Source: an uncultured Gammaproteobacteria bacterium
Lineage (GTDB): Bacteria > Patescibacteriota > Patescibacteriia > UBA2196 > GWA2-42-15
DNA length: 64,000 bases
Assembly (NCBI GenBank): GCA_964573135.1
Contig: CAZNIO010000003.1
Coordinates: 10,881 to 74,880, forward strand
Reading direction: 5' to 3'
Each line of letters opens with the position of its first letter. Position 1 is the stretch's first letter. The position numbers were made by a program, and so were the translations under genes. Below the pieces are notes generated by a model. The model was not told the DNA's origin, ran no database searches, and worked only from the letters and a program-made list of their open reading frames with translations. This document shows positions 9,840 through 56,884 of this stretch, piece by piece.

Positions 9840-11078
9840 TTATGACCAATATTTTAATGCTTGCTGTAGCTCTTTATGCTGGGTGGCATATTTTGAGAAA
9901 TTTTCTTGCTGGCTGACTGCTTCAACTGCTTGCTGACAGGCTTTAGCACCGGCAATTGGTCCGTCAGGGTGACCATGAAGTCCCCCGCCGAAGTTTATAA
10001 CAATATTTGGACCTAGAATTTTAACTAGATCAGGTACGAGTCCTGGATGCAAGCCGCCTGAAGCAATAGGTAAAGTGGGCTTAATTTTTCCCCAAGGAGT
10101 AGTCACGGCTTCGTTAATGGCATCAACTGTTTCCTTATCGCCTTCCATTTTACCGACTACGGTGCCGGTATGTAGTTGATCAATGCCACATAACCTGGCA
10201 AGCTTGGCTAAGAGGAGCATGGTCATGCCGTGGCGTGGATTTTTAGTAAACATGGAATGACCAGCGCGATGACCGTGTATGATCAAACCTAAATTTTGAT
10301 TTCTTAAAAATTGTACGTTATCTAAGCCACAAACCACCAGGTCAATCATAACTATTTTGCCACCATGCTTTTTAACTAATTTAGCACGCTTGAGCATGAT
10401 ATCAGCTGGACCAGTCACGTTGAAGACGTGTACTTTTTTGTGTCCGGTAACTTTTTGCGCTTGTTTTTTTAGTTTTAAAACTTGCTTAACACGATCTTCA
10501 AATTTATTGAATTTCATGTCGGTCAAATTTTCATCGTCCTTAACTAGATCAATGCCATTTGCCCAAATGTCATAGGTTAGTTGGGCGTGCTGTTTGGAGG
10601 AAAGCCCGAGCTTTGGCTTAATGATTGAGCCAATGATGGGCCTCTCCTTTATATCTAAGTAATTTCTGATGCCAACAATGCCAAAGGCGGGTCCTTGGAA
10701 AGAATTTAGATATTTGTCCGGGAAATGAATATCTAGAAGTCTTAAATTACTAATAATTTTCATGGAGAAAACATTGCCAGCTAAAGCGGAGAGAAGCTGA
10801 GTAATATTACCTAACTCAAAAAGATCTAGGGGATAGGCAATATGAGCAATTTTTTTATGATAATCAAGTTTAAAAATCTTTGGACCAAGGCGGCTAATTG
10901 TTTTTTTATCTAAAGTAGTTAGCTTAGTCCAAGTACCAATAGATGATTCCTGGGCAACTTTAACCGAAGCGGTTTTTAAACCCAAAGGACTTTCAATGTG
11001 ATAGATAGCAACAAGATGATCCTTCAAAGAGGGTTTAGTATTGAGTTTTAAATAAGGTGATTTCATGATTAAAGCCAA
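9840..11078 (-). CDS. rbcL: Ribulose-bisphosphate carboxylase large subunit, form II/III-like
   Basis: NGIDLVKDDENLTD (GxDFxKxDE-like active-site region) and GGGLHGHPDG near the C-terminus. 412 aa. Confidence 0.8.
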   Translation of the reverse strand: MALIMKSPYLKLNTKPSLKDHLVAIYHIESPLGLKTASVKVAQESSIGTWTKLTTLDKKTISRLGPKIFKLDYHKKIAHIAYPLDLFELGNITQLLSALAGNVFSMKIISNLRLLDIHFPDKYLNSFQGPAFGIVGIRNYLDIKERPIIGSIIKPKLGLSSKQHAQLTYDIWANGIDLVKDDENLTDMKFNKFEDRVKQVLKLKKQAQKVTGHKKVHVFNVTGPADIMLKRAKLVKKHGGKIVMIDLVVCGLDNVQFLRNQNLGLIIHGHRAGHSMFTKNPRHGMTMLLLAKLARLCGIDQLHTGTVVGKMEGDKETVDAINEAVTTPWGKIKPTLPIASGGLHPGLVPDLVKILGPNIVINFGGGLHGHPDGPIAGAKACQQAVEAVSQQENFSKYATQHKELQQALKYWS

Positions 11079-43986: not shown

Positions 43987-43987
43987 A

Positions 43988-44020
43988 AGAGGACTCACTC
44001 GCAAGATTGGGTCTTTTTTG
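43988..44020 (+). terminator. Putative terminator after tRNA-Glu (imperfect hairpin + T6)
   Basis: aagaggactcactcgcaagattgggtctttttt is about 80% identical to the module after Repeat B2 (47088..47121). Confidence 0.4.
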
Positions 44021-44172
44021 ATTGGAATGTTAACGCAGGAAGTGATTTTCTAGCTTCAATTGAAATATAGATAAGTTGGTTGCAGAAAATATCTATGAAA
44101 TGTACACATTTGACAGATAAAAAAGTTTTATGTATACTTAAAATATATTGAATAATTAAAAAAGTTTTAAAT

Positions 44173-45378
44173 ATGATTAAAAAATACATCAAACGCCCTA
44201 TATACTTAGATCAAATTAAGCCCTTTATTGACAAGGATATTATTAAAGTTATCATCGGACAACGACGAGTTGGTAAAAGTTATTTGTTGTTCCAAATAAT
44301 GGATGAGATAAAAAAGAAAAATAAAACAGCTAATATTATTTATATCAACAAAGAATTAAATGAATTTGAAACAATAAAAAATGACAAAGACTTATTGGAT
44401 TATATTAAAAAAAATAATAAGAATAAGAAGAGTTATGTTTTTATTGATGAAATACAGGATATTCAAAATTTTGAAAAGGCCTTAAGAAGCTTGAAAGCTG
44501 AGGGGAAATATGATATCTACTGCACTGGCAGTAATGCTAATTTGCTATCAAGCGAAATAGCCACTTATCTTAGCGGTCGATATATTGAGATAAACGTTTT
44601 TGGATTAAGTTATGTTGAATTTTTACAATTTCATAATTTGAAGGAAGATACAGATTCATTTTTAAAATATATCAAATATGGTGGTTTGCCTTATTTAATA
44701 AATTTAGATTTAACTGACGAAATTGTTTATCATTATTTAAAAAGTATTTATAACACAATTCTATTGAAGGATGTTGTCAGCAGATTTAATATTCGTAATG
44801 TTTCATTTTTAGAAAGTTTAATTGACTACCTGGCTGATAATACTGGTAGCTTAGTTTCTTCTAAGAAAATTAGTGATTTTTTAAAATCACAAAAAATTAA
44901 TATTTCAACAAACATTGTCTTGGATTATTTATCTTTTTTAGCAAATGCATTCTTTATTTTCAAAGTCCAAAGATCTGAGGTACAGGGTAAAAAAATATTT
45001 GAAATTAATGATAAATATTACTTTGAAGATCTTGGGCTCAGACATTCCTTAATTGGTTATAAGCAGGTCGATATAAATAAGATTTTAGAAAATTTAGTTT
45101 TTTTACATTTACAAATTTTAGGCTACAAAGTAACAGTTGGGCAACTGAAAGAAAAAGAAATTGATTTTGTGTGTGAAAAAGAAAATAAAAAAATATATAT
45201 TCAAGTGGCTTACTTAATTAATGATAAAAATAAAGATAGGGAGTTTGGAAATTTATTACAAATCAAGGATAATTATCCTAAAATAGTTGTTTCAACTGAT
45301 GAATTAATAGACAACAGTGAATATAAAGGAGTAAAACATTTTAATATTAGAAATTTTTTAACCATAACATCTTTTTAA
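44173..45378 (+). CDS. AAA-family ATPase with DUF4143-like C-terminal domain
   Basis: Walker A GQRRVGKSY, Walker B …VFIDEIQ…. 401 aa, architecture typical of AAA_14+DUF4143 ATP-binding proteins. Confidence 0.7.
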   Translation: MIKKYIKRPIYLDQIKPFIDKDIIKVIIGQRRVGKSYLLFQIMDEIKKKNKTANIIYINKELNEFETIKNDKDLLDYIKKNNKNKKSYVFIDEIQDIQNFEKALRSLKAEGKYDIYCTGSNANLLSSEIATYLSGRYIEINVFGLSYVEFLQFHNLKEDTDSFLKYIKYGGLPYLINLDLTDEIVYHYLKSIYNTILLKDVVSRFNIRNVSFLESLIDYLADNTGSLVSSKKISDFLKSQKINISTNIVLDYLSFLANAFFIFKVQRSEVQGKKIFEINDKYYFEDLGLRHSLIGYKQVDINKILENLVFLHLQILGYKVTVGQLKEKEIDFVCEKENKKIYIQVAYLINDKNKDREFGNLLQIKDNYPKIVVSTDELIDNSEYKGVKHFNIRNFLTITSF

Positions 45379-45407
45379 GTTTGCTAAATTTTATACACTT
45401 TACAACC

Positions 45408-45479
45408 CTGGAATCACAAGATGCCACCTCCTAATATCCCCCACTATTTGTTTTAAATTCTTTAAACAATGGTCTACCA
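45408..45479 (+). repeat. Repeat B copy 1 (~72-nt conserved non-coding element)
   Basis: ctggaatcacaagatgccacctcctaatatcccccactatttgttttaaattctttaaacaatggtctacca. About 90% identity with copies at 47018 and 47989. Confidence 0.75.
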
Positions 45480-45500
45480 TTCCAGATTTCCCCTTAGATC

Positions 45501-45548
45501 GCCCGCCCCTTGGGCGGATGAATTCTCGGCGCTTCGCGCCGTTTTTTT
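45501..45548 (+). terminator. Tandem GC hairpins + T8 after Repeat B1
   Basis: CCGCC-ccttg-GGCGG followed by GGCGC-ttc-GCGCC, then gttttttt. Confidence 0.6.
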
Positions 45549-45807
45549 GTTTTATCTAATTTTTGAGAGTTGTTTGGTTTGAAAAGTTTTGTAAGTATGA
45601 AAATATAAGGTCGTCACTTGCTATTTACTTGGGACGACTTTTTTATTGTAAATTGGTTTAATCTTACGAAATTGCCCCTTATTTTAGAGGGTTTTGGGGT
45701 TGGGCAATGTGGACTTTTTCTATTGCATAATATATAATCAAGTCAGATAAAAATACATACAGACTCTAAGAAACAAGTAAGTAAATATCAATACAAATAA
45801 TACCCCT

Positions 45808-46803
45808 ATGATGATCAATAAAAGTACATATATTTTTGGTGGCGGAGATTCTGATGGATTGCTTGGCATTGCCACAATATTAAAAAAAGTAAATGATGCT
45901 TTTTTCTCTTTTACTTCCCCTAGAACCTTACATAGTCTAATCCATGATCTTGTAAAAGGAACTAACGGTAGTGTCTATATTGTAGATTTAGCAATAGATG
46001 CTTCAACATATAAAGATTTATTTAAAGAAATAGAAGGACGGCCTGGATTTGATAGTTATTTTTTTGACCAACATAATTTACCCGCTGGCGTATCCAAAGA
46101 GGACTTGCCGTTCACTGATTTATCAATTGATAGTGCGGTATCTAGCTGTGAAAATACATACGTTACAATTGGAAGCGATCTGGATCCTATAATTCCAGCC
46201 ATGGCTTCCTTAAATGACGGCATTTCTGATACTGAAAAAATAAGGGAAGCACAAAAAATTCATGGGGAGAAACTATATTCAAATGCTAAAATATTAAAAT
46301 TTGGTTTGGCATACAATATTAAAGATAATAAATTTAAACGTCAATTAGTGTATGATTTTAAAGAGGGCAAATATCCAGAATCTATTCCTGAATTAGTAGA
46401 TAGATACAAAAAAGGCCTTATACGGTGGGAAGAAATTAAAAAGATGGCTAATGAAAGGAAAAAAAGCCTTACACATCTAGCGTATGGTTTGTTCCCAAAT
46501 TTGAAAGGGGGGTTTACTAACTTACTAGCAGCATACCTAGCAGAAAGCACTGAAAAATTAGTTGGGGTTAGTATCCTTGAAACTGACCGCACCCTGCAAA
46601 AAATGAATATTATTTCAAATGATCCATCACTGAATATTGGTTTGTTTGTACATAAAGTAGCAAACAAATTTAATGGTTTTGGCGGGGGTAGTATTTCTAG
46701 CGCTGGGGCTACTTTACAGAAAAAGGAGACTACAAACTTTCTGCAAAACCTTAATAAAGAGATTGGAGATTATAAAAAATTATTAAAAAGCAATCAAGAC
46801 TAA
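45808..46803 (+). CDS. Hypothetical protein, possible DHH/DHHA1-like phosphoesterase
   Basis: N-terminal IFGGGDSDGLLG (DxD-like motif I), …VDLAID…, …FFDQHN… (degenerate DHH), C-terminal …FNGFGGGSIS… (DHHA1 GGGH-like). Weak assignment. Confidence 0.45.
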   Translation: MMINKSTYIFGGGDSDGLLGIATILKKVNDAFFSFTSPRTLHSLIHDLVKGTNGSVYIVDLAIDASTYKDLFKEIEGRPGFDSYFFDQHNLPAGVSKEDLPFTDLSIDSAVSSCENTYVTIGSDLDPIIPAMASLNDGISDTEKIREAQKIHGEKLYSNAKILKFGLAYNIKDNKFKRQLVYDFKEGKYPESIPELVDRYKKGLIRWEEIKKMANERKKSLTHLAYGLFPNLKGGFTNLLAAYLAESTEKLVGVSILETDRTLQKMNIISNDPSLNIGLFVHKVANKFNGFGGGSISSAGATLQKKETTNFLQNLNKEIGDYKKLLKSNQD

Positions 46804-46807
46804 AAAG

Positions 46808-46930
46808 ATGACCAGAAAAAACATTGAAATAATTTTACCAGAAGTATCGCAAGACACTATTAAGTACGACTTGCGCAAAATGAAAGAAAAAGGCTTAATT
46901 GTCCAAAGTGGTGAGTCTGTAAATACATAG
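46808..46930 (+). CDS. Small ORF (40 aa), possible winged-helix fragment or gene remnant
   Basis: MTRKNIEIILPEVSQDTIKYDLRKMKEKGLIVQSGESVNT starts 5 nt after the stop of the preceding gene and resembles the C-terminus of a wHTH regulator. Below the track cutoff. Confidence 0.25.
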   Translation: MTRKNIEIILPEVSQDTIKYDLRKMKEKGLIVQSGESVNT

Positions 46931-47017
46931 TATGAAGCTAATTTTTAGTTAAAAAAACTACCTAAAATTTAACCGCAATTAGAAGCGATCCCGAATAATT
47001 AATTAAGTATTTAATTC

Positions 47018-47087
47018 AGGAATCACAAAATACCATCTCCTAATATCCCCTACTATTTGTTTTAAATTCTTTAAACAGTGGTCTACC
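47018..47087 (+). repeat. Repeat B copy 2
   Basis: caggaatcacaaaataccatctcctaatatcccctactatttgttttaaattctttaaacagtggtctacca. Ends in CTACCA like a tRNA 3' end. Confidence 0.75.
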
Positions 47088-47093
47088 AAAGAA

Positions 47094-47121
47094 TACTCAC
47101 TCGTAAGAGTGGGTGTTTTTT
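47094..47121 (+). terminator. Intrinsic terminator after Repeat B2 (CACTC-gtaa-GAGTG + T6)
   Basis: Hairpin + T-run. The sequence resembles the tRNA-Glu flank. Confidence 0.5.
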
Positions 47122-47151
47122 GTTTAGGCTAATATTTATGCTATAATACAA

Positions 47152-47769
47152 ATGTTAACTAAATTAAACAGTATGAAAAAGTATTTTAAAAAATCTAATC
47201 CAAAAATAAAAATTAATACAATTTATGTTTTTATTGATGCTTCAAATGTCTGGAATGCGGTCAAGGCTGAAAAGAAATTTATTGAATACAAGAAGATTAA
47301 AAATTGGTTGAAAAAGAATTTTAATGCTACTAATGTTGAAATTTTTTATTATGATGCCTACCCCAAAGATGGGACAAGGGAATATAGCCTAGATGGTAAA
47401 CATAGATTTTTTACCTATCTAAAAAAAGGTCTCGGCTTCACGGTGCGTAAAAAAGAATTAAAAAGAATTACCATTACTAGTAAAGATGGGGAATCTATCA
47501 TGGAGAAAGGTAATATGGATATAGAGATGGTTATTGATGCGATCCATAATATGAATAAATATGATACTGCTGTTTTGTTTAGTGGAGATGCTGATTTTTT
47601 GGCACTAGTTAATTATTTAAAAAATGGTGGTAAAAAAGTCTATATTTTCTCCTCAAAAGATAATATATCTCGCGAACTTAAAACTGGCGGGAATGGATAT
47701 TTTGATGTAAGGGATATAAAAGAATTCTGGGGTAAGGATTTGAAATATCGTATAAATAAGCAAAAATAA
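47152..47769 (+). CDS. NYN-domain (LabA-like) putative ribonuclease
   Basis: …IYVFIDASNVWNA… and …VLFSGDADF… acidic residues, typical of the NYN/LabA-like PIN-related fold. 205 aa. Confidence 0.65.
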   Translation: MLTKLNSMKKYFKKSNPKIKINTIYVFIDASNVWNAVKAEKKFIEYKKIKNWLKKNFNATNVEIFYYDAYPKDGTREYSLDGKHRFFTYLKKGLGFTVRKKELKRITITSKDGESIMEKGNMDIEMVIDAIHNMNKYDTAVLFSGDADFLALVNYLKNGGKKVYIFSSKDNISRELKTGGNGYFDVRDIKEFWGKDLKYRINKQK

Positions 47770-47988
47770 AACCACCCTCAACTAAGAGGATGGCTCTAGG
47801 ATGTATAACCCTAACAGTTCTATGGAAGAACCGAAAGACATTATTAATATACACTTTTTTAATAAAAATGTCAAATTTCATCCACAGGGTGTCAAAATAG
47901 CATTATTATCAAATATTTATCTGATATATTAACTATATCAGATTATATCAATTTAAGGGATGTTAATGGTGAGCAATAGTCCGTAACT

Positions 47989-48059
47989 CAGGAATCACAA
48001 AATACCATCTCCTAACATCAGCCACTATTTGTTTTAAATTCTTTAAACAATAGTCTACC
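47989..48059 (+). repeat. Repeat B copy 3
   Basis: caggaatcacaaaataccatctcctaacatcagccactatttgttttaaattctttaaacaatagtctacc. Confidence 0.75.
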
Positions 48060-48249
48060 GAAGAAGACTTCTCCTCGCGAGTGGTCTTTTTTGATTTGTA
48101 GATTAGAAAAAAATAGAGTTTCTCAGTTTTTACGTGATTTATAGATTGAAATAAGGATTTGGTTTATTTCAATAAATGGCATATTATTACAACATAAATA
48201 ACGACATTGTAAAGATATAAATTATCAAGAAAAAACTATAAAATCTTTA

Positions 48250-48633
48250 GTGACAGCGATAAGTTATGTTGTTTCACTTATGGCTTTAGGTTTTATTTCA
48301 TTTCTTGTTTCCATCGGCTTATCTTGGAGTCGTTGTGATTTGAAATGCGAGGTATCTCACTTTTTATCTAGTGAGCTACTGGCTATATTTTTTTGGCCGG
48401 TGATGCTCATAGGCGACATTGATAACCTTGTTTTCGTATTGATTTTTTGTGCTCTTTTTAATATTCTTTTTGTTTATTTTATTTTGCGTTTAATTATAGC
48501 GAAGACGCGGTTGTCAAATAAACAAATTATTTTAATAATTATTATCGGTTCTTTGGTAATTGCTCCTATTTTACCGATTATTGGATTTAACAGTGAATTC
48601 TATCGCCAGTTTGTAATGGACTTCTGGTCTTAA
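48250..48633 (+). CDS. Small integral membrane protein (127 aa, GTG start)
   Basis: Four hydrophobic segments. No family assignable. Confidence 0.45.
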   Translation: MTAISYVVSLMALGFISFLVSIGLSWSRCDLKCEVSHFLSSELLAIFFWPVMLIGDIDNLVFVLIFCALFNILFVYFILRLIIAKTRLSNKQIILIIIIGSLVIAPILPIIGFNSEFYRQFVMDFWS

Positions 48634-48940
48634 AAGTCTTTTTTGATTTCGATTCAGTTGTGATTATTTTTTTACACACTATATCTAATTTTTAAATTGA
48701 CCTTATTTTTTATAATTGTCTGAAAAACTTCAATACCTCCTCCACCAAAGTTTTTCAAAGGAATAAGGCATATAAGCATCAGAGATTTTTTAAAAAGTAC
48801 TTCTTTTTAATATTGAGCAACCAAAACCCAATATCTGAAGCCATTTATGCAAGCCTATTGGCCTAACCCTATACACAACCTGCTTAGTCCTGCCAAGACC
48901 CTTGCAAAATACTATATTTATGCTAATGTTTAATCAATAG

Positions 48941-49008
48941 AAACAGTTTGTGATTCTGGTATTATAAAATACCGTTTTTTAATATCAGCGATTATTTGTT
49001 GCAAATTC
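48941..49008 (+). repeat. Partial/rearranged Repeat B-like segment immediately upstream of tRNA-Val
   Basis: …gattatttgttgcaaattctttaaataatgg matches the 3' half of Repeat B. Upstream tttgtgattctggtatt is the inverted form of the Repeat B 5' segment gaatcacaaa…atacc. Confidence 0.5.
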
Positions 49009-49009
49009 T

Positions 49010-49086
49010 TTAAATAATGGGGCACTTAGCTCAGTTGGCTAGAGCATCTCGTTTACACCGAGAGGGTCGGGGGTTCGAGTCCCTCA
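49010..49086 (+). tRNA. tRNA-Val (anticodon TAC), CCA encoded
   Basis: Acceptor GGGCACT/AGTGCCC, anticodon arm TCTCG-TTTACAC-CGAGA, T-arm GGGGG-TTCGAGT-CCCTC. Confidence 0.9.
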
Positions 49087-50922: not shown

Positions 50923-50997
50923 GCGGGTGTCGTATAATGGTTATTATATTGGGTTGCCAATCCAAAGATGGCGGTTCGATTCCGCTCACCCGCTCCA
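50923..50997 (+). tRNA. tRNA-Gly (anticodon GCC), CCA encoded
   Basis: Acceptor GCGGGTG/CACCCGC, anticodon arm TTGGG-TTGCCAA-TCCAA, T-arm GGCGG-TTCGATT-CCGCT. Track ORF 50919..51113(-) is spurious. Confidence 0.85.
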
Positions 50998-51395
50998 ACT
51001 AAAAGCTTCTTTAATAGCTCTAATATTAGGGGAGTTTTTAGTTGGAATTTAAGTGGCTGGTAATGGGAATCAAACTTTTGCCTTATTTTATAAACCGCGC
51101 AATTTGACATCAAAATAAAGTCTTCTGGTTATATTTATTAAAATTAAGCTAATATTAGCTAAATTATTACTTTATGCTAACCGCGCAATTTGACATATAA
51201 CTTTTGATCTAAAAAAAGCATACCCTAATTACTTTTTAGATACAAAGGAATTCATTGCTTATCTTAACAAAATTGTAGACAAAAAATAATAAATTTTACA
51301 AAATAAGCTAAGCTTCTCCCTGCATAACAAACTCTGGAGAACAAATCCCCCCATCGAATTGTACTGTCACAGTTCTAACATCATTGACTAAAGAG

Positions 51396-51440
51396 CTCCA
51401 TCCAAAAAACTCTAGAAATTCTAGAGTTTTTTGGATGAAT
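51396..51440. repeat. Palindromic element copy 1 (AAAAAACTCTAGAA-A-TTCTAGAGTTTTTT with CCATCC/GGATG extension); doubles as a bidirectional terminator
   Basis: Near-perfect palindrome of about 40 bp. A second copy at 53141 has the centre base flipped (A vs T). Confidence 0.75.
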
Positions 51441-51480
51441 TGACATTGCCATACCCAATAAAAAATGGTATAATTACAAT

Positions 51481-51705
51481 ATGAAACAAGCTAAAAAATA
51501 TATAAAGTCATCATCTTTCTGGGATTATAAGATTGAGAAAAGGGCACTTAAAAATGAAAAAGTGAAAAAGTTTTGGTTGGCTAGAAAAATCAATATGGCG
51601 GACTGGCAAGGGATCAAGAAAAAAGACCTAGAAAAATATTTACCCGAACTTGATATCAGGCCGGAAATGAAAAATTTGTTAACTTTATTTTTGGAACATG
51701 CTTAA
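51481..51705 (+). CDS. Small hypothetical protein (74 aa), candidate AbiEi-like/antitoxin partner
   Basis: 8-nt overlap with the downstream AbiEii-like gene. Basic/charged. No clear motif. Confidence 0.4.
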   Translation: MKQAKKYIKSSSFWDYKIEKRALKNEKVKKFWLARKINMADWQGIKKKDLEKYLPELDIRPEMKNLLTLFLEHA

Positions 51706-52375
51706 GAATATTTTAAATCCAACACAGATAAAAGCATTAACTGCTATTGGCCAAAGCGAACTGGCTAAAATTTATTATTGGACTGGTGGTACTGCTTTGG
51801 CGTATAAATACTTAAACAATAGATTATCAGTTGACCTGGATTTTTTTAGTTATGATTTAATAGCAGATGAAGAGCTGTTGGCTTTGGTAAATAATATCAA
51901 AAAGCAATTAGGGGTTAAAAGAATTAAATTTTATAAGAATTTAAATCGTCAACAATTTATCCTTGATTTTGGCAATAAAATCAGCTTGCAACTTGAGTTT
52001 GTATATTTCCCCTTTGATAATATATCAAAACCAAAATCAGACCAGGATTTTAAGATTAAAGTTGATTCATTAGTTGATATGGCGACTAATAAAACGCTAG
52101 CTACTTATCAGAGAAATGAACCTAAAGATATTTTTGATTTATATTCCCTTTTAGAAACTAAAAAATTTAAATTGCCTGGGTTAATAAAAAATGTTAATAA
52201 AAAATTTGAAATAGAAATTGATGAAGCAGATTTGGAAGCAAAAATTTTAAGTAATATTGATTTATTGGAGAATATAAGGCCATTGATATTGAATAAGAGG
52301 AATTTCAAAATTGGCAAGATAGAAGCTTTTTTTACCAAGAAATCTGTTAACTATTTAAAGACGGTTATTTTTTGA
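51698..52375 (+). CDS. Nucleotidyltransferase of the AbiEii/AbiGii (DUF1814) toxin family
   Basis: …YYWTGGTALAYKYLNNRLSVDLDFFS… matches the hGGTAL…R.S.DLDF signature of type IV TA / abortive-infection NTases. Confidence 0.6.
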   Translation: MLKNILNPTQIKALTAIGQSELAKIYYWTGGTALAYKYLNNRLSVDLDFFSYDLIADEELLALVNNIKKQLGVKRIKFYKNLNRQQFILDFGNKISLQLEFVYFPFDNISKPKSDQDFKIKVDSLVDMATNKTLATYQRNEPKDIFDLYSLLETKKFKLPGLIKNVNKKFEIEIDEADLEAKILSNIDLLENIRPLILNKRNFKIGKIEAFFTKKSVNYLKTVIF

Positions 52376-52439
52376 TACCAAACCCTGTGTTGAGAACTAA
52401 AAATTGAGATGGTAATATTAAAAGCAAAAGTGATATACA

Positions 52440-53069
52440 ATGAATAAAATTCAACAAGCCAATCAAGAGTCTAGACATGGTAATAATTTGAATGATAAGA
52501 ATTTTAAGAGTGTGGCAGGACTCTATGAGAAGAGTTTAAAGTTTCCAGCCCAAAAATACCAAAAGCAGCTAATTATTTGCCCGATCGGACTTGTTAGTTC
52601 AGGAAAAACCACAGTCGTCAAGATTTTGTGTAAAAAGTTACCACTTTTGCGCGTTTCAACTGATGAGATTAGATTACTATTAAAAGAAAAAGAGTACAAT
52701 TTTACTAGGACACGTGAATTGGCTTGGCATATAATTAATAAATATTTAAAGCAGGGGTTCAGTATTGCCATTGATGCAGATTGTATTTCCGAAGAGGCAC
52801 GCAAATATATAAAAGATTTGGAAAAACAAACTAAAACCAAAGTTTTTTGGATTCATATTAACCCACCCCGGAGTTTTATTTTAAATAATTTAAGTAAACC
52901 TAAAAAAATATTCAAAAATACTGAACATGCATTGCGGGTTTATAAAATGCACAAAGTATTACATAATAAGATAAATTTTCCTTTTATATATATTTTTGAT
53001 ACGGCCAAAAATAATGTGATAGAACAAACCAAGGAGTGCGTGTTACTAATTAAGAAGGAATTAAGTTAA
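52440..53069 (+). CDS. P-loop NTPase/kinase (AAA_33/zeta-toxin-like fold)
   Basis: Walker A CPIGLVSSGKTTVVKIL. 209 aa. No further family resolution. Confidence 0.55.
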   Translation: MNKIQQANQESRHGNNLNDKNFKSVAGLYEKSLKFPAQKYQKQLIICPIGLVSSGKTTVVKILCKKLPLLRVSTDEIRLLLKEKEYNFTRTRELAWHIINKYLKQGFSIAIDADCISEEARKYIKDLEKQTKTKVFWIHINPPRSFILNNLSKPKKIFKNTEHALRVYKMHKVLHNKINFPFIYIFDTAKNNVIEQTKECVLLIKKELS

Positions 53070-53140
53070 CCAATTCATATGATTGAATTGTGGGATATAA
53101 GAATTGTGCCCTAAGCGGAGTAATATTAGTTCTAGCGACC

Positions 53141-53180
53141 TCCGCCAAAAAACTCTAGAATTTCTAGAGTTTTTTGAATA
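53141..53180. repeat. Palindromic element copy 2 (AAAAAACTCTAGAA-T-TTCTAGAGTTTTTT)
   Basis: Same 30-bp core as 51396..51440 with the complementary centre base, consistent with inverted orientation. Between convergent genes. Confidence 0.75.
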
Positions 53181-53209
53181 GGCGAATAAAATCATTATAA
53201 CCTCATTTT

Positions 53210-53425
53210 CTATTTTTTAGATTTTCTCATTTTTGTCCTCTGAACATCAGATAAAGACGTAAGCCAGAAAACAAAAGGTCGACGAATTTTCTCAATTGAA
53301 TAGTCCCCGCTTATAAAGAGCGCGGGCTTTTTAATTTCAAAAAAAAGAAGCATCCCAAGAGTAGCTCTCATATTTAAAGGAGAGAGATTATTGTGTTCAA
53401 TTAAAAATTGTCCTCTGGTAGTCAT
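53210..53425 (-). CDS. Small hypothetical protein (71 aa)
   Basis: ORF only. Weak. Confidence 0.25.
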   Translation of the reverse strand: MTTRGQFLIEHNNLSPLNMRATLGMLLFFEIKKPALFISGDYSIEKIRRPFVFWLTSLSDVQRTKMRKSKK

Positions 53426-55795: not shown

Positions 55796-56884
55796 TTATT
55801 GAAACTCTTGAATTCTGCCCCCTCCCAGGCAGATTTTGTTTTTATAAAAAACAACGTACTGACCAGGAGTGATTGATTTTACTGGTTTTCTGAAAATAAT
55901 CTTTAGCTTCCCCTTATGAATAGGATAAAGAATTGCTTTGGCTGCCTTGTGAGCGTAGCGAATCTTGGCCTTAATCCTAATAGGTTTGTCTAGTAGTTGA
56001 TTAGAAATAAAATTAAAGGGATAAAGAACCGCTTGTTGCGATTTAAGATCATCTTCGTTTTTACTGACGATTAGAACGTTTTTAATTATATTAAAACCAA
56101 CCACAAACCAGGGACCACCTGCTAATTTTATGCCTTTGCGTTGGCCCAAAGTATAGAAATGAAGACCTTGATGTTTACCCAGAATATTACCTTGTATATC
56201 TTGTATCCCCCCTACTTTCTCCCCAATAGCCTTACTCAAAAATTTAGGCATAGATTTACCGGCAACAAAGCAAAAATCTTGGCTTTGTTTTATTTTTTCA
56301 AAAAAATCAAAGCCATGCCTTTTGGCAATTTTATATACCTGTTGCTTGGTATATTTGTCAAGAGGGAAAACGACGTCTTTTAAATATTCTTGGGGTAGAA
56401 AGGACAAAGAATATGTCTGATCTTTGTGTTTATCTTTGGGCTTTAGAAGCTGATAACCTACCTTGCCTTTTTTGACTTGTGCAAAATGTCCAGTGGCTAC
56501 ATGCTGGATACCTTTATCTCTTGCCCAGGCAAACAGTTTTTTAAATTTTAAATTTGGATTACACATGATGCATGGATTGGGGGTTTTATTGTTCCTTAAT
56601 TCAGAAATGAAATAATCAATGACTTCTTGTTCAAATTCCTTTGAAACATCAAAGATATGATGTTCTACCCCTAGTTTTTGACAAACTTGCCTGGCAACAT
56701 CAAAAGACTCCTTTGAGCAACAGGCGTTTTCACGCAGGGAGTTATCTTTGTCTTGCCAAACAGCATATTTGAGTGAGAGGCCAATTGGTTGCCAGCCTTG
56801 TTTTTTGAGCAATATTAAAGCGACTGACGAATCAACTCCGCCAGACATGCCAACTACTATTTTTTTATCATTCTTATGTTTCAT
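55796..56884 (-). CDS. mnmA: tRNA-specific 2-thiouridylase MnmA
   Basis: PP-loop VVGMSGGVDSSVA and catalytic Cys region …NPCIMCN…. Confidence 0.85.
   Translation of the reverse strand: MKHKNDKKIVVGMSGGVDSSVALILLKKQGWQPIGLSLKYAVWQDKDNSLRENACCSKESFDVARQVCQKLGVEHHIFDVSKEFEQEVIDYFISELRNNKTPNPCIMCNPNLKFKKLFAWARDKGIQHVATGHFAQVKKGKVGYQLLKPKDKHKDQTYSLSFLPQEYLKDVVFPLDKYTKQQVYKIAKRHGFDFFEKIKQSQDFCFVAGKSMPKFLSKAIGEKVGGIQDIQGNILGKHQGLHFYTLGQRKGIKLAGGPWFVVGFNIIKNVLIVSKNEDDLKSQQAVLYPFNFISNQLLDKPIRIKAKIRYAHKAAKAILYPIHKGKLKIIFRKPVKSITPGQYVVFYKNKICLGGGRIQEFQ

Follow-up and report, generated by a model that had tools for sequence, protein, structure and literature searches.

The stretch of DNA analysed here (hereafter, the window) consists of 64,000 nucleotides of contig CAZNIO010000003.1 (GenBank assembly GCA_964573135.1), from an uncultured, Kuenenbacteria-like bacterium belonging to the Patescibacteriota, and the feature in question is a pair of palindromes with a copy-to-copy period of 1743 bp, which flank a module composed of a small open reading frame (ORF), an AbiEii-family nucleotidyltransferase gene and a P-loop kinase gene. 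These palindromes are probably direct repeats of a single bidirectional terminator, between which an acquired low-GC module of 1.7 kb was inserted or deleted. The nearest different genome found, the Kuenenbacteria metagenome-assembled genome (MAG) GCA_043823865.1 (hereafter L053), carries one palindrome in the corresponding interval and none of these genes. The features of the locus are as follows:

51387..51437, no strand assigned: terminator copy 1, left flank and 39-bp perfect palindrome, centre A
51446..51474, plus strand: sigma-70-like promoter, TTGCCA-17-TGgTATAAT, 11/12, the best of a 12-kb scan
51481..51705, plus strand: conserved partner ORF, putative antitoxin, 74 aa, with homologues (58-66% identical) directly upstream of AbiEii in four other Patescibacteria loci
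51698..52375, plus strand: AbiEii-family nucleotidyltransferase, putative toxin, 225 aa (PF08843, PADLOC)
52440..53069, plus strand: P-loop kinase, AAA_33, Pnkp-kinase-like, 209 aa, a separate gene (PF13671, E = 6e-9)
53120..53176, no strand assigned: terminator copy 2, diverged left flank and 31-bp perfect palindrome, centre T
53177..53216, no strand assigned: relic of mnmA-proximal sequence, about 80% identical to L053 10067-10101

Sequence and orientation of the repeat

Copy 1 of the palindrome reads CATCCAAAAAACTCTAGAA-A-TTCTAGAGTTTTTTGGATG (51399-51437), with perfect 19-nt arms, and it follows a conserved left flank of 12-17 nt, ACTAAAGAGCTCCATCC. Copy 2 reads CAAAAAACTCTAGAA-T-TTCTAGAGTTTTTTG (53146-53176), with 15-nt arms, and its left flank, TAATATTAGTTCTAGCGACCTCCGCC, is a diverged version of that of copy 1. 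An initial annotation, made from the letters of this DNA alone, had reported two near-perfect palindromes around a 1.7-kb module, and both were found again here, copy 1 being longer than described. The sequence pattern of the repeated palindrome is AAAAAACTCTAGAANTTCTAGAGTTTTTT; the 29-nt pattern had exactly two matches in the window when as many as three mismatches were tolerated, and none in 100 shuffled sequences. Over the 35 nt common to the copies, two positions differ, namely the centre (A or T) and the base right after the T-run (G or A), so that the earlier statement that the copies differ only at the centre holds for the centre itself and misses one further base.

The flipped centre was initially taken to mean that one copy is the inverted version of the other, as in the terminal inverted repeats of a miniature inverted-repeat transposable element (MITE). 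The alignment of the two copies leans slightly in that direction, since 34/35 positions are identical when they are compared in inverted orientation and 33/35 when they are compared directly, i.e., one mismatch versus two, but the difference is too small to decide the orientation of the repeat. The 26 nt adjoining the A6...T6 core were compared in both orientations, against random 26-mers taken from the window:

copy-2 left flank versus L053 left flank, direct: p = 0.001
copy-2 left flank versus copy-1 left flank, direct: p = 0.013
copy-2 right flank versus L053 right flank, direct: p = 0.004
copy-1 right flank versus either of the other right flanks: not significant
inverted-orientation comparisons (all five): not significant

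Since the flanks are similar in direct orientation only, the repeat is direct. The repeated unit consists of about 17-26 nt of left flank together with the palindrome, with a total length of roughly 45-55 nt.

In all the folds obtained, the hairpin loop has 3 nt and the centre base is the second of them. Orthologous loci carrying the core in public collections differ at this base (A in L024 versus T in L022 and L027; A in L031 versus T in L039), it is the sole difference between orthologous loci in MAGs of gut Bacilli and Tenericutes, and the single copy of L053 has a T where copy 1 has an A. Since it is a loop position and orthologous copies vary there, the A/T change can be regarded as a neutral one, which does not mark orientation. 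Within the source population, the centre was A in all the contigs covering copy 1 (7/7) and T in all those covering copy 2 (8/8). All the contigs carrying exactly the proteins of the window were from the same strain (99.9-100% identity), and in this set of 12 independent contigs from several samples, every one that spans a junction shows the same orientation, none of them having the segment inverted.

It is therefore very improbable that the palindromes are the terminal inverted repeats of a MITE-like element or a composite transposon, or that they serve as crossover sites for the inversion of a segment: the inverted flank comparisons are at chance level, only two copies are present in the window, their orientation and centres are fixed in the same-strain contigs, and orthologous terminators which occur as single copies elsewhere likewise vary at the centre. 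The outer flanks (...GAGCTC|CATCC and ...TTTTTTG|AATAGG) have no short direct repeat in common which might be a target-site duplication, and no transposase, integrase or invertase is annotated within about 8 kb (precomputed Pfam calls, 42.7 to 60.4 kb). A practical warning can be drawn from this case: a palindrome occurring twice with only its centre changed cannot be read as a pair of inverted terminal repeats, since the orientation of the repeat is decided by the flanks and the loop base varies freely.

Comparison with a related genome

L053 shows 74% (IMPase) and 75% (MnmA) protein identity with the window, and about 75% identity in the flanking DNA. The locus is syntenic in L053, where Pth, tRNA-Glu, tRNA-Val, an 83-aa ORF, tRNA-Ala, IMPase, DUF167 and tRNA-Gly are followed by the convergent mnmA gene. 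The interval from tRNA-Gly to mnmA amounts in this genome to only 716 bp and, in addition, a single palindrome (10026-10066, centre T), with neither the small ORF nor AbiEii, the kinase or the sulfatase gene located beyond copy 2 in the window. The L053 palindrome lies between the tRNA-Gly side and the minus-strand mnmA, the stop codon of which falls inside it, the mnmA ORF being 14 codons longer in L053. On the left of this palindrome, 17 nt (ACTAAAGAGCTCCATCC) match the left flank of copy 1 exactly, and on its right 35-40 nt share about 80% identity with the right flank of copy 2, namely the relic listed above. Around copy 1, an island of 54 nt is 92.6% identical to L053 amid DNA which is otherwise unalignable.

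Since L053 has one copy, with outer flanks matching the left of copy 1 and the right of copy 2, the segment is a recombination-bounded insertion or deletion. The initial annotation had suggested a recombination-bounded insertion downstream of tRNA-Gly and the search for an empty site; its suggestion is supported in a modified form, in which the boundaries are direct repeats of a terminator and there is no link to tRNA-Gly, and L053 provides the site without the module. No empty or excised site was present among the 12 contigs of the same population. In more distant relatives, reached via IMPase and MnmA homologues, either synteny was lost or a different terminator was present.

Predicted terminator character of the hairpin

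In each copy, the 8-bp stem lies between an A6 tract and a T6 tract, and the hairpin folds strongly on both strands. The RNA hairpin of copy 1 has a predicted energy of -25.7 kcal/mol on the plus strand and -27.6 kcal/mol on the minus strand (z about -7), and that of copy 2 -20.6 and -22.2 kcal/mol, respectively, with z ranging from -5 to -7 over both copies. Copy 1 was also picked up by a terminator consensus scan. Both copies look like bidirectional intrinsic (Rho-independent) terminators, and termination is predicted in both directions, which is in line with the initial annotation. Copy 2 stands after the kinase gene and faces minus-strand sequence, while no confirmed gene ends at copy 1. 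The Rfam search gave no RNA family in the gap between tRNA-Gly and the palindrome or at the palindromes, beyond microRNA matches at chance level. Four other palindromes with the same layout (A-run, stem, loop, stem, T-run) occur in the window, all of which have different, GC-richer stems.

The initial annotation proposed searching for further copies of the palindrome. In public collections which include neither the source genome nor that of L053, a scan with the 21-nt core gave 5 metagenome, 16 genome and 0 viral matches; copies thus exist elsewhere, although only in unrelated bacteria (Bacilli, Tenericutes, Clostridium, Flavobacterium, Saccharibacteria and Gracilibacteria), and all of them are in terminator-like contexts. 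In the Gracilibacteria MAG McBI.71, the core, AACTCTAGAA(A/T)TTCTAGAGTT, is present at three unrelated loci (L028 1693-1713, L029 1855-1875 and L033 737-757), in each case precisely in the gap between two convergent ORFs (genetic code 25). By a rough estimate, which was not computed, 21 matches are about what chance reuse of an 8-bp stem would give at that database size.

These matches raise the question as to whether the two copies might be independent instances of a favoured, recurrent terminator, the placement of which around the module is incidental. The identical core at 21 loci of unrelated low-GC bacteria speaks for this idea, as do the three loci in a single Gracilibacteria MAG, which lie between convergent ORFs and have nothing in common but the core, and the number of copies in the source genome is known for these 64 kb only. 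On the other hand, the similarity seen in direct orientation does not stop at the hairpin but includes the left flank (p = 0.001 and 0.013). Moreover, one copy is the next terminator after the other, at a distance of 1.7 kb, the remaining strong terminators of the window are all built on different stems, and L053 has exactly one copy, with matching outer flanks. We therefore think it unlikely that the two copies arose independently.

Genes of the module and their origin

The AbiEii protein matches PF08843 with 59.5 bits (cut-off 22.5 bits; E = 6e-16) and is also matched by 16 PADLOC AbiEii models; GGTAL and DLD motifs are seen in its translation, the nucleotidyltransferase motifs being intact. 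The 74-aa ORF overlaps the start of the AbiEii gene by 8 nt. It had no matches in Pfam, NCBIfam, PADLOC or PDB, and the AlphaFold model built from the single sequence is helical, with a low confidence (predicted local distance difference test score 65). The two genes putatively form a translationally coupled AbiE-like toxin-antitoxin or abortive-infection pair. As far as the kinase is concerned, the closest protein of solved structure is Clostridium thermocellum Pnkp, by its kinase domain (4GP7/4JST, E = 0.004), and the kinase gene is preceded by a weak promoter-like site of its own (52390-52418). The -35 hexamer of the module promoter starts 8 nt past copy 1 and the -10 hexamer ends 6 nt ahead of the ATG at 51481, and this spacing suggests that the mRNA would be leaderless or have a very short leader.

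The GC content of the AbiEii gene is 27.4% and that of the kinase gene 30.8%, whereas the mean value for the genes of the window is 36.6% (SD, i.e., standard deviation, 4.2; 42 genes), which places AbiEii 2.2 SD below that mean. Both this low GC content and the gene families support the earlier description of the bracketed genes as accessory ones.

AbiEii homologues are common in Patescibacteria, with identities of up to 66%. In three independent contexts in relatives (GC 38%, 29% and 30%), AbiEii is always preceded by an ORF of 74-77 aa, 58-66% identical to the present one, and the neighbourhood consists of addA/uvrD, dciA, a 125-aa ORF, in some cases pheS, the pair, and then pheT or a glycosyltransferase gene. 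At loci L040-L049 (e.g., L043 4781-5681, L046 4790-5681 and L048 3849-4749), the pair sits inside housekeeping operons, either between pheS and pheT or beside dciA, with gaps of 2 bp or less, and the small partner (74-77 aa) is rich in lysine and tryptophan. None of the pairs in the contexts inspected has an adjacent kinase gene or a comparable palindrome within 1.5 kb. Since the pairs of relatives lack the kinase, the conserved unit is the two-gene pair and the kinase is a separate passenger at this locus; since they lack the palindromes, the palindromes do not travel with the pair. The initial annotation had itself named the occurrence of the module without the palindromes in related genomes as something that would refute its proposal, and the ORF-AbiEii pairs of relatives correspond to this. 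No relatives of AbiEii or the kinase were found in viral contigs. The low GC content and the different location of the pair in relatives favour, without proving it, a gain in the lineage of the window over a loss in that of L053.

The position of copy 1 next to the module promoter could also be explained in another way. AbiE antitoxins bind inverted repeats in their own promoters, and copy 1 ends 8 nt before the -35 hexamer; it might accordingly be an operator serving the autoregulation of a toxin-antitoxin pair, copy 2 being a decoy or a second operator. This explanation was rejected, as L053 carries the palindrome and no toxin-antitoxin pair, and since the homologous pairs at four other loci have no such palindrome upstream, we give it hardly any credence.

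Proposed mechanism

The scenario we favour is that of a terminator duplicated around an acquired module. In L053, a single terminator stands between the unit on the tRNA-Gly side and the convergent mnmA. Recombination at this terminator would have brought the segment in (or, less likely, the relative would have lost it), leaving about 45-55 nt, i.e., the short left flank and the hairpin, on each side. Typical target duplications made by transposases are far shorter than such a repeat. The result would most likely have come about by one of two routes. One would be a single-crossover (Campbell-type) integration of circularised incoming DNA carrying a homologous terminator, which would account for the fact that the 'new' halves are more diverged than the orthologous ones, and the other, an insertion at a long staggered break followed by fill-in. 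By either route, a working terminator would be kept on each side, and selection would favour such an outcome: copy 1 would shield the module promoter from upstream read-through, while copy 2 would end the transcripts of the module as well as those coming from the opposite strand. Direct repeats would also permit a clean, precise loss of the module.

Several observations weigh against this scenario. In none of the three copies has any of the 28 paired core positions changed, although the flanking genes are only about 75% identical, and between the same two genomes the tRNA-Gly terminator has been wholly replaced (AAAAAATCTTCATAAATATTTATGAAGATTTTTT in L053, another hairpin in the window), so that the conservation of the core exceeds what plain terminator function would predict. 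The strict orthologue of the L053 copy is ambiguous: its 17-nt left flank is identical to that of copy 1, while its more distal left flank (-17 to -80) can be aligned, marginally, with the side of copy 2 only (p about 0.05), and because of this ambiguity L053 is not confidently explained as a simple deletion product of copies 1 and 2. Lastly, only one syntenic relative was found, so the polarity of the gain or loss rests on base composition and on the location of the pair elsewhere.

The conservation of the core could be accounted for if the palindrome and its 17-nt flank were a recombination site served in trans, by a Xer/dif-like or a hairpin-recognising enzyme, the module being a cassette. 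This would fit the one-copy site of L053 as opposed to the two-copy, module-bearing site of the window, the complete turnover of the neighbouring terminator while the core stayed 100% conserved in three copies, the 54-nt island in unalignable intergenic DNA, and the existence of a second nearby island, between tRNA-Glu and tRNA-Val, where accessory genes lie between repeated punctuation sequences which are single-copy or absent in L053. However, the annotation shows no recombinase for about 8 kb in either direction, and the site has a 1-nt centre, no 11-6-11 dif architecture and no TTATG-type arm. In addition, neither the same module together with the site nor a second cassette at such a site was found elsewhere in the metagenome, genome and viral collections, which do not include the source genome, the ORF-AbiEii pairs of relatives are devoid of such a site, and the excised or empty form is absent from the 12 contigs of the same population. 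All in all, a site of this kind seems rather improbable. A wider version of the idea, in which the terminator and its 17-nt flank are a dedicated insertion site for accessory blocks in Kuenenbacteria-like genomes of the candidate phyla radiation (CPR), and the tRNA-Glu/tRNA-Val island results from the same process, appears to us to be doubtful to much the same extent; the agent might in that case be either an enzyme acting in trans or an uptake-coupled recombination process duplicating the 'punctuation' sequence. If the conservation of the hairpin did reflect a recognition site, this would point to an undescribed route of cassette insertion in Patescibacteria, which the present evidence does not require.

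Taken as a terminator duplicated around an acquired module, the locus would provide a small, clean example of a reduced CPR genome gaining or losing defence-type genes, in the form of a block placed at the terminator between convergent units, with a promoter of its own and insulated by a copy of the terminator on each side.

Surroundings of the locus

Three further features of the region are the following:

50923..50997, plus strand: tRNA-Gly(GCC), a landmark and not an insertion target (ARAGORN, Rfam)
50998..51386, no strand assigned: non-coding hypervariable interval after tRNA-Gly, with no tRNA-independent ORF of at least 40 aa
53217..55804, plus strand: second extra block in comparison with L053, encoding a 730-aa sulfatase-family protein (Pfam Sulfatase)

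tRNA-Gly was initially described as adjacent to the module; it does lie upstream, at a distance of 400 bp from copy 1. It is directly followed by a hairpin of its own (50994-51046). The idea that it is an integration target was rejected, as the window contains no second tRNA-Gly 3' end (up to 3 mismatches); the marks of a tRNA-targeting island are likewise absent, with no tRNA 3'-end repeat at the far border and no integrase domain in the Pfam calls between 42.7 and 60.4 kb. The possibility of a replication terminus or dif site was also discarded, the GC skew following gene orientation only, with no chromosome-level signal.

The interval 50998..51386 could not be aligned with the corresponding intervals of L051, L053 and L062. 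This is a hypervariable spot: what directly follows tRNA-Gly is unrelated in each of four related genomes. The window has 400 non-coding bp there, L051 an ORF of 96 aa, L053 an ORF of 78 aa on the minus strand, and L062 another bidirectional terminator together with a convergent gene. In the window, this interval contains an 18-bp exact direct repeat, AACCGCGCAATTTGACAT, at 51093-51110 and 51179-51196 (86 bp apart), these being the sole two copies in the window. Otherwise identical assemblies carry three alleles at position 51278, namely G (the window), A (L003) and C (L015); the contigs of three independent assemblies break off at 51277-51280, and those of another four begin at 51550-51607. 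These alleles and contig breaks near copy 1 hint at either heterogeneity of the population or an assembly problem.

On the other side of the module, homology with L053 ends at 53216 and is picked up again at 55805, within mnmA. The second block parts mnmA from the terminator and the 40-nt mnmA-proximal relic. The sulfatase-family protein carries TSP3 repeats, and the block also holds an unconfirmed 71-aa ORF on the minus strand.

Between tRNA-Glu and tRNA-Val (43987-49019), the window contains four low-GC accessory genes, encoding an AAA_14/DUF4143 ATPase, a 331-aa ORF product (weak DHHA1 match), a NYN-domain protein and a 127-aa ORF product. What separates these genes is a series of repeated units, located at about 45404-45479, 47006-47125, 47972-48096 and 48939-49020 and each composed of the upstream leader of tRNA-Val, 'GGT', the last bases of tRNA-Glu (CTACCA) and a terminator, i.e., a tRNA gene without its body. 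The theme is the same as that of the module, with accessory genes between duplicated punctuation sequences. In L053, tRNA-Glu and tRNA-Val are only 175 nt apart, and the 3' end of tRNA-Glu is repeated exactly and in direct orientation over 24 nt (AATTCCCCTAGGGACTGCCATTCA, at 1243-1266 and 1410-1433), on either side of a hairpin-rich spacer of about 145 nt right before tRNA-Val; this arrangement resembles a scar left by a tRNA-targeting integrative element.

Comparison with known systems

No description of terminator duplication around insertions was found in the literature, where the Patescibacteria gene pair occurs only in passing mentions. Several known systems resemble the locus in part. 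MITEs and other transposons with terminal inverted repeats also have a short palindromic sequence at both ends of a discrete segment; here, however, there are three intact genes inside, no target-site duplication and no multi-copy family was seen, and either end carries the palindrome in full, not a single arm of an inverted pair. Integron attC sites are imperfect palindromes of 57-141 bp with R''/R' boxes (RYYYAAC ... GTTRRRY) and extrahelical bases, and they go with a promoterless cassette; they were rejected as a model, the present palindrome being perfect, with the ends AAAAAAC and GTTTTTT, and the module having its own 11/12 promoter. In pdif modules and integrative mobile elements exploiting Xer (IMEX), both of which are Xer-dependent, a small module, often a toxin-antitoxin one, lies between two palindromic sites of about 28-40 bp, as is the case here; but pdif sites are inverted and have the 11-6-11 XerC/XerD architecture, two 11-bp arms for the recombinases surrounding a central region of 6-8 bp in sites of the Xer/dif type, whereas the present sites are direct, have a 1-nt centre and double as a gene's terminator.

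The locus comes closer to three other kinds of system. Direct-repeat islets such as Campbell products and cis-mobilisable elements devoid of an integrase likewise consist of a recombinase-less block between repeats of tens of nucleotides, with a relative carrying a single copy. Here, however, a terminator hairpin takes the place of the tRNA or att core as the repeat, and there was no sign of a partner element with an integrase. As in the AbiE type IV toxin-antitoxin systems, AbiEii (DUF1814) lies downstream of a small partner which it overlaps, under one promoter; the partner differs in that it has 74 aa and no detectable counterpart of the N-terminal, DNA-binding winged-helix (COG5340-type) domain of AbiEi antitoxins and belongs to a conserved Patescibacteria-specific family, and in this genome only, an unrelated Pnkp-like kinase gene follows. 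With the bidirectional terminators located between convergent genes, the hairpin shares an A-tract, a stem and a T-tract on both strands, as well as the position of the L053 copy between convergent units; it departs from them in that only 2/8 pairs of the core stem are G-C, three copies from genomes with a divergence of about 25% agree in sequence and not just in structure, and two copies with homologous flanks surround an accessory block. The feature is thus a combination of known kinds: a bidirectional intrinsic terminator, a direct-repeat islet, and an AbiE-like pair in which the small partner is unusual.

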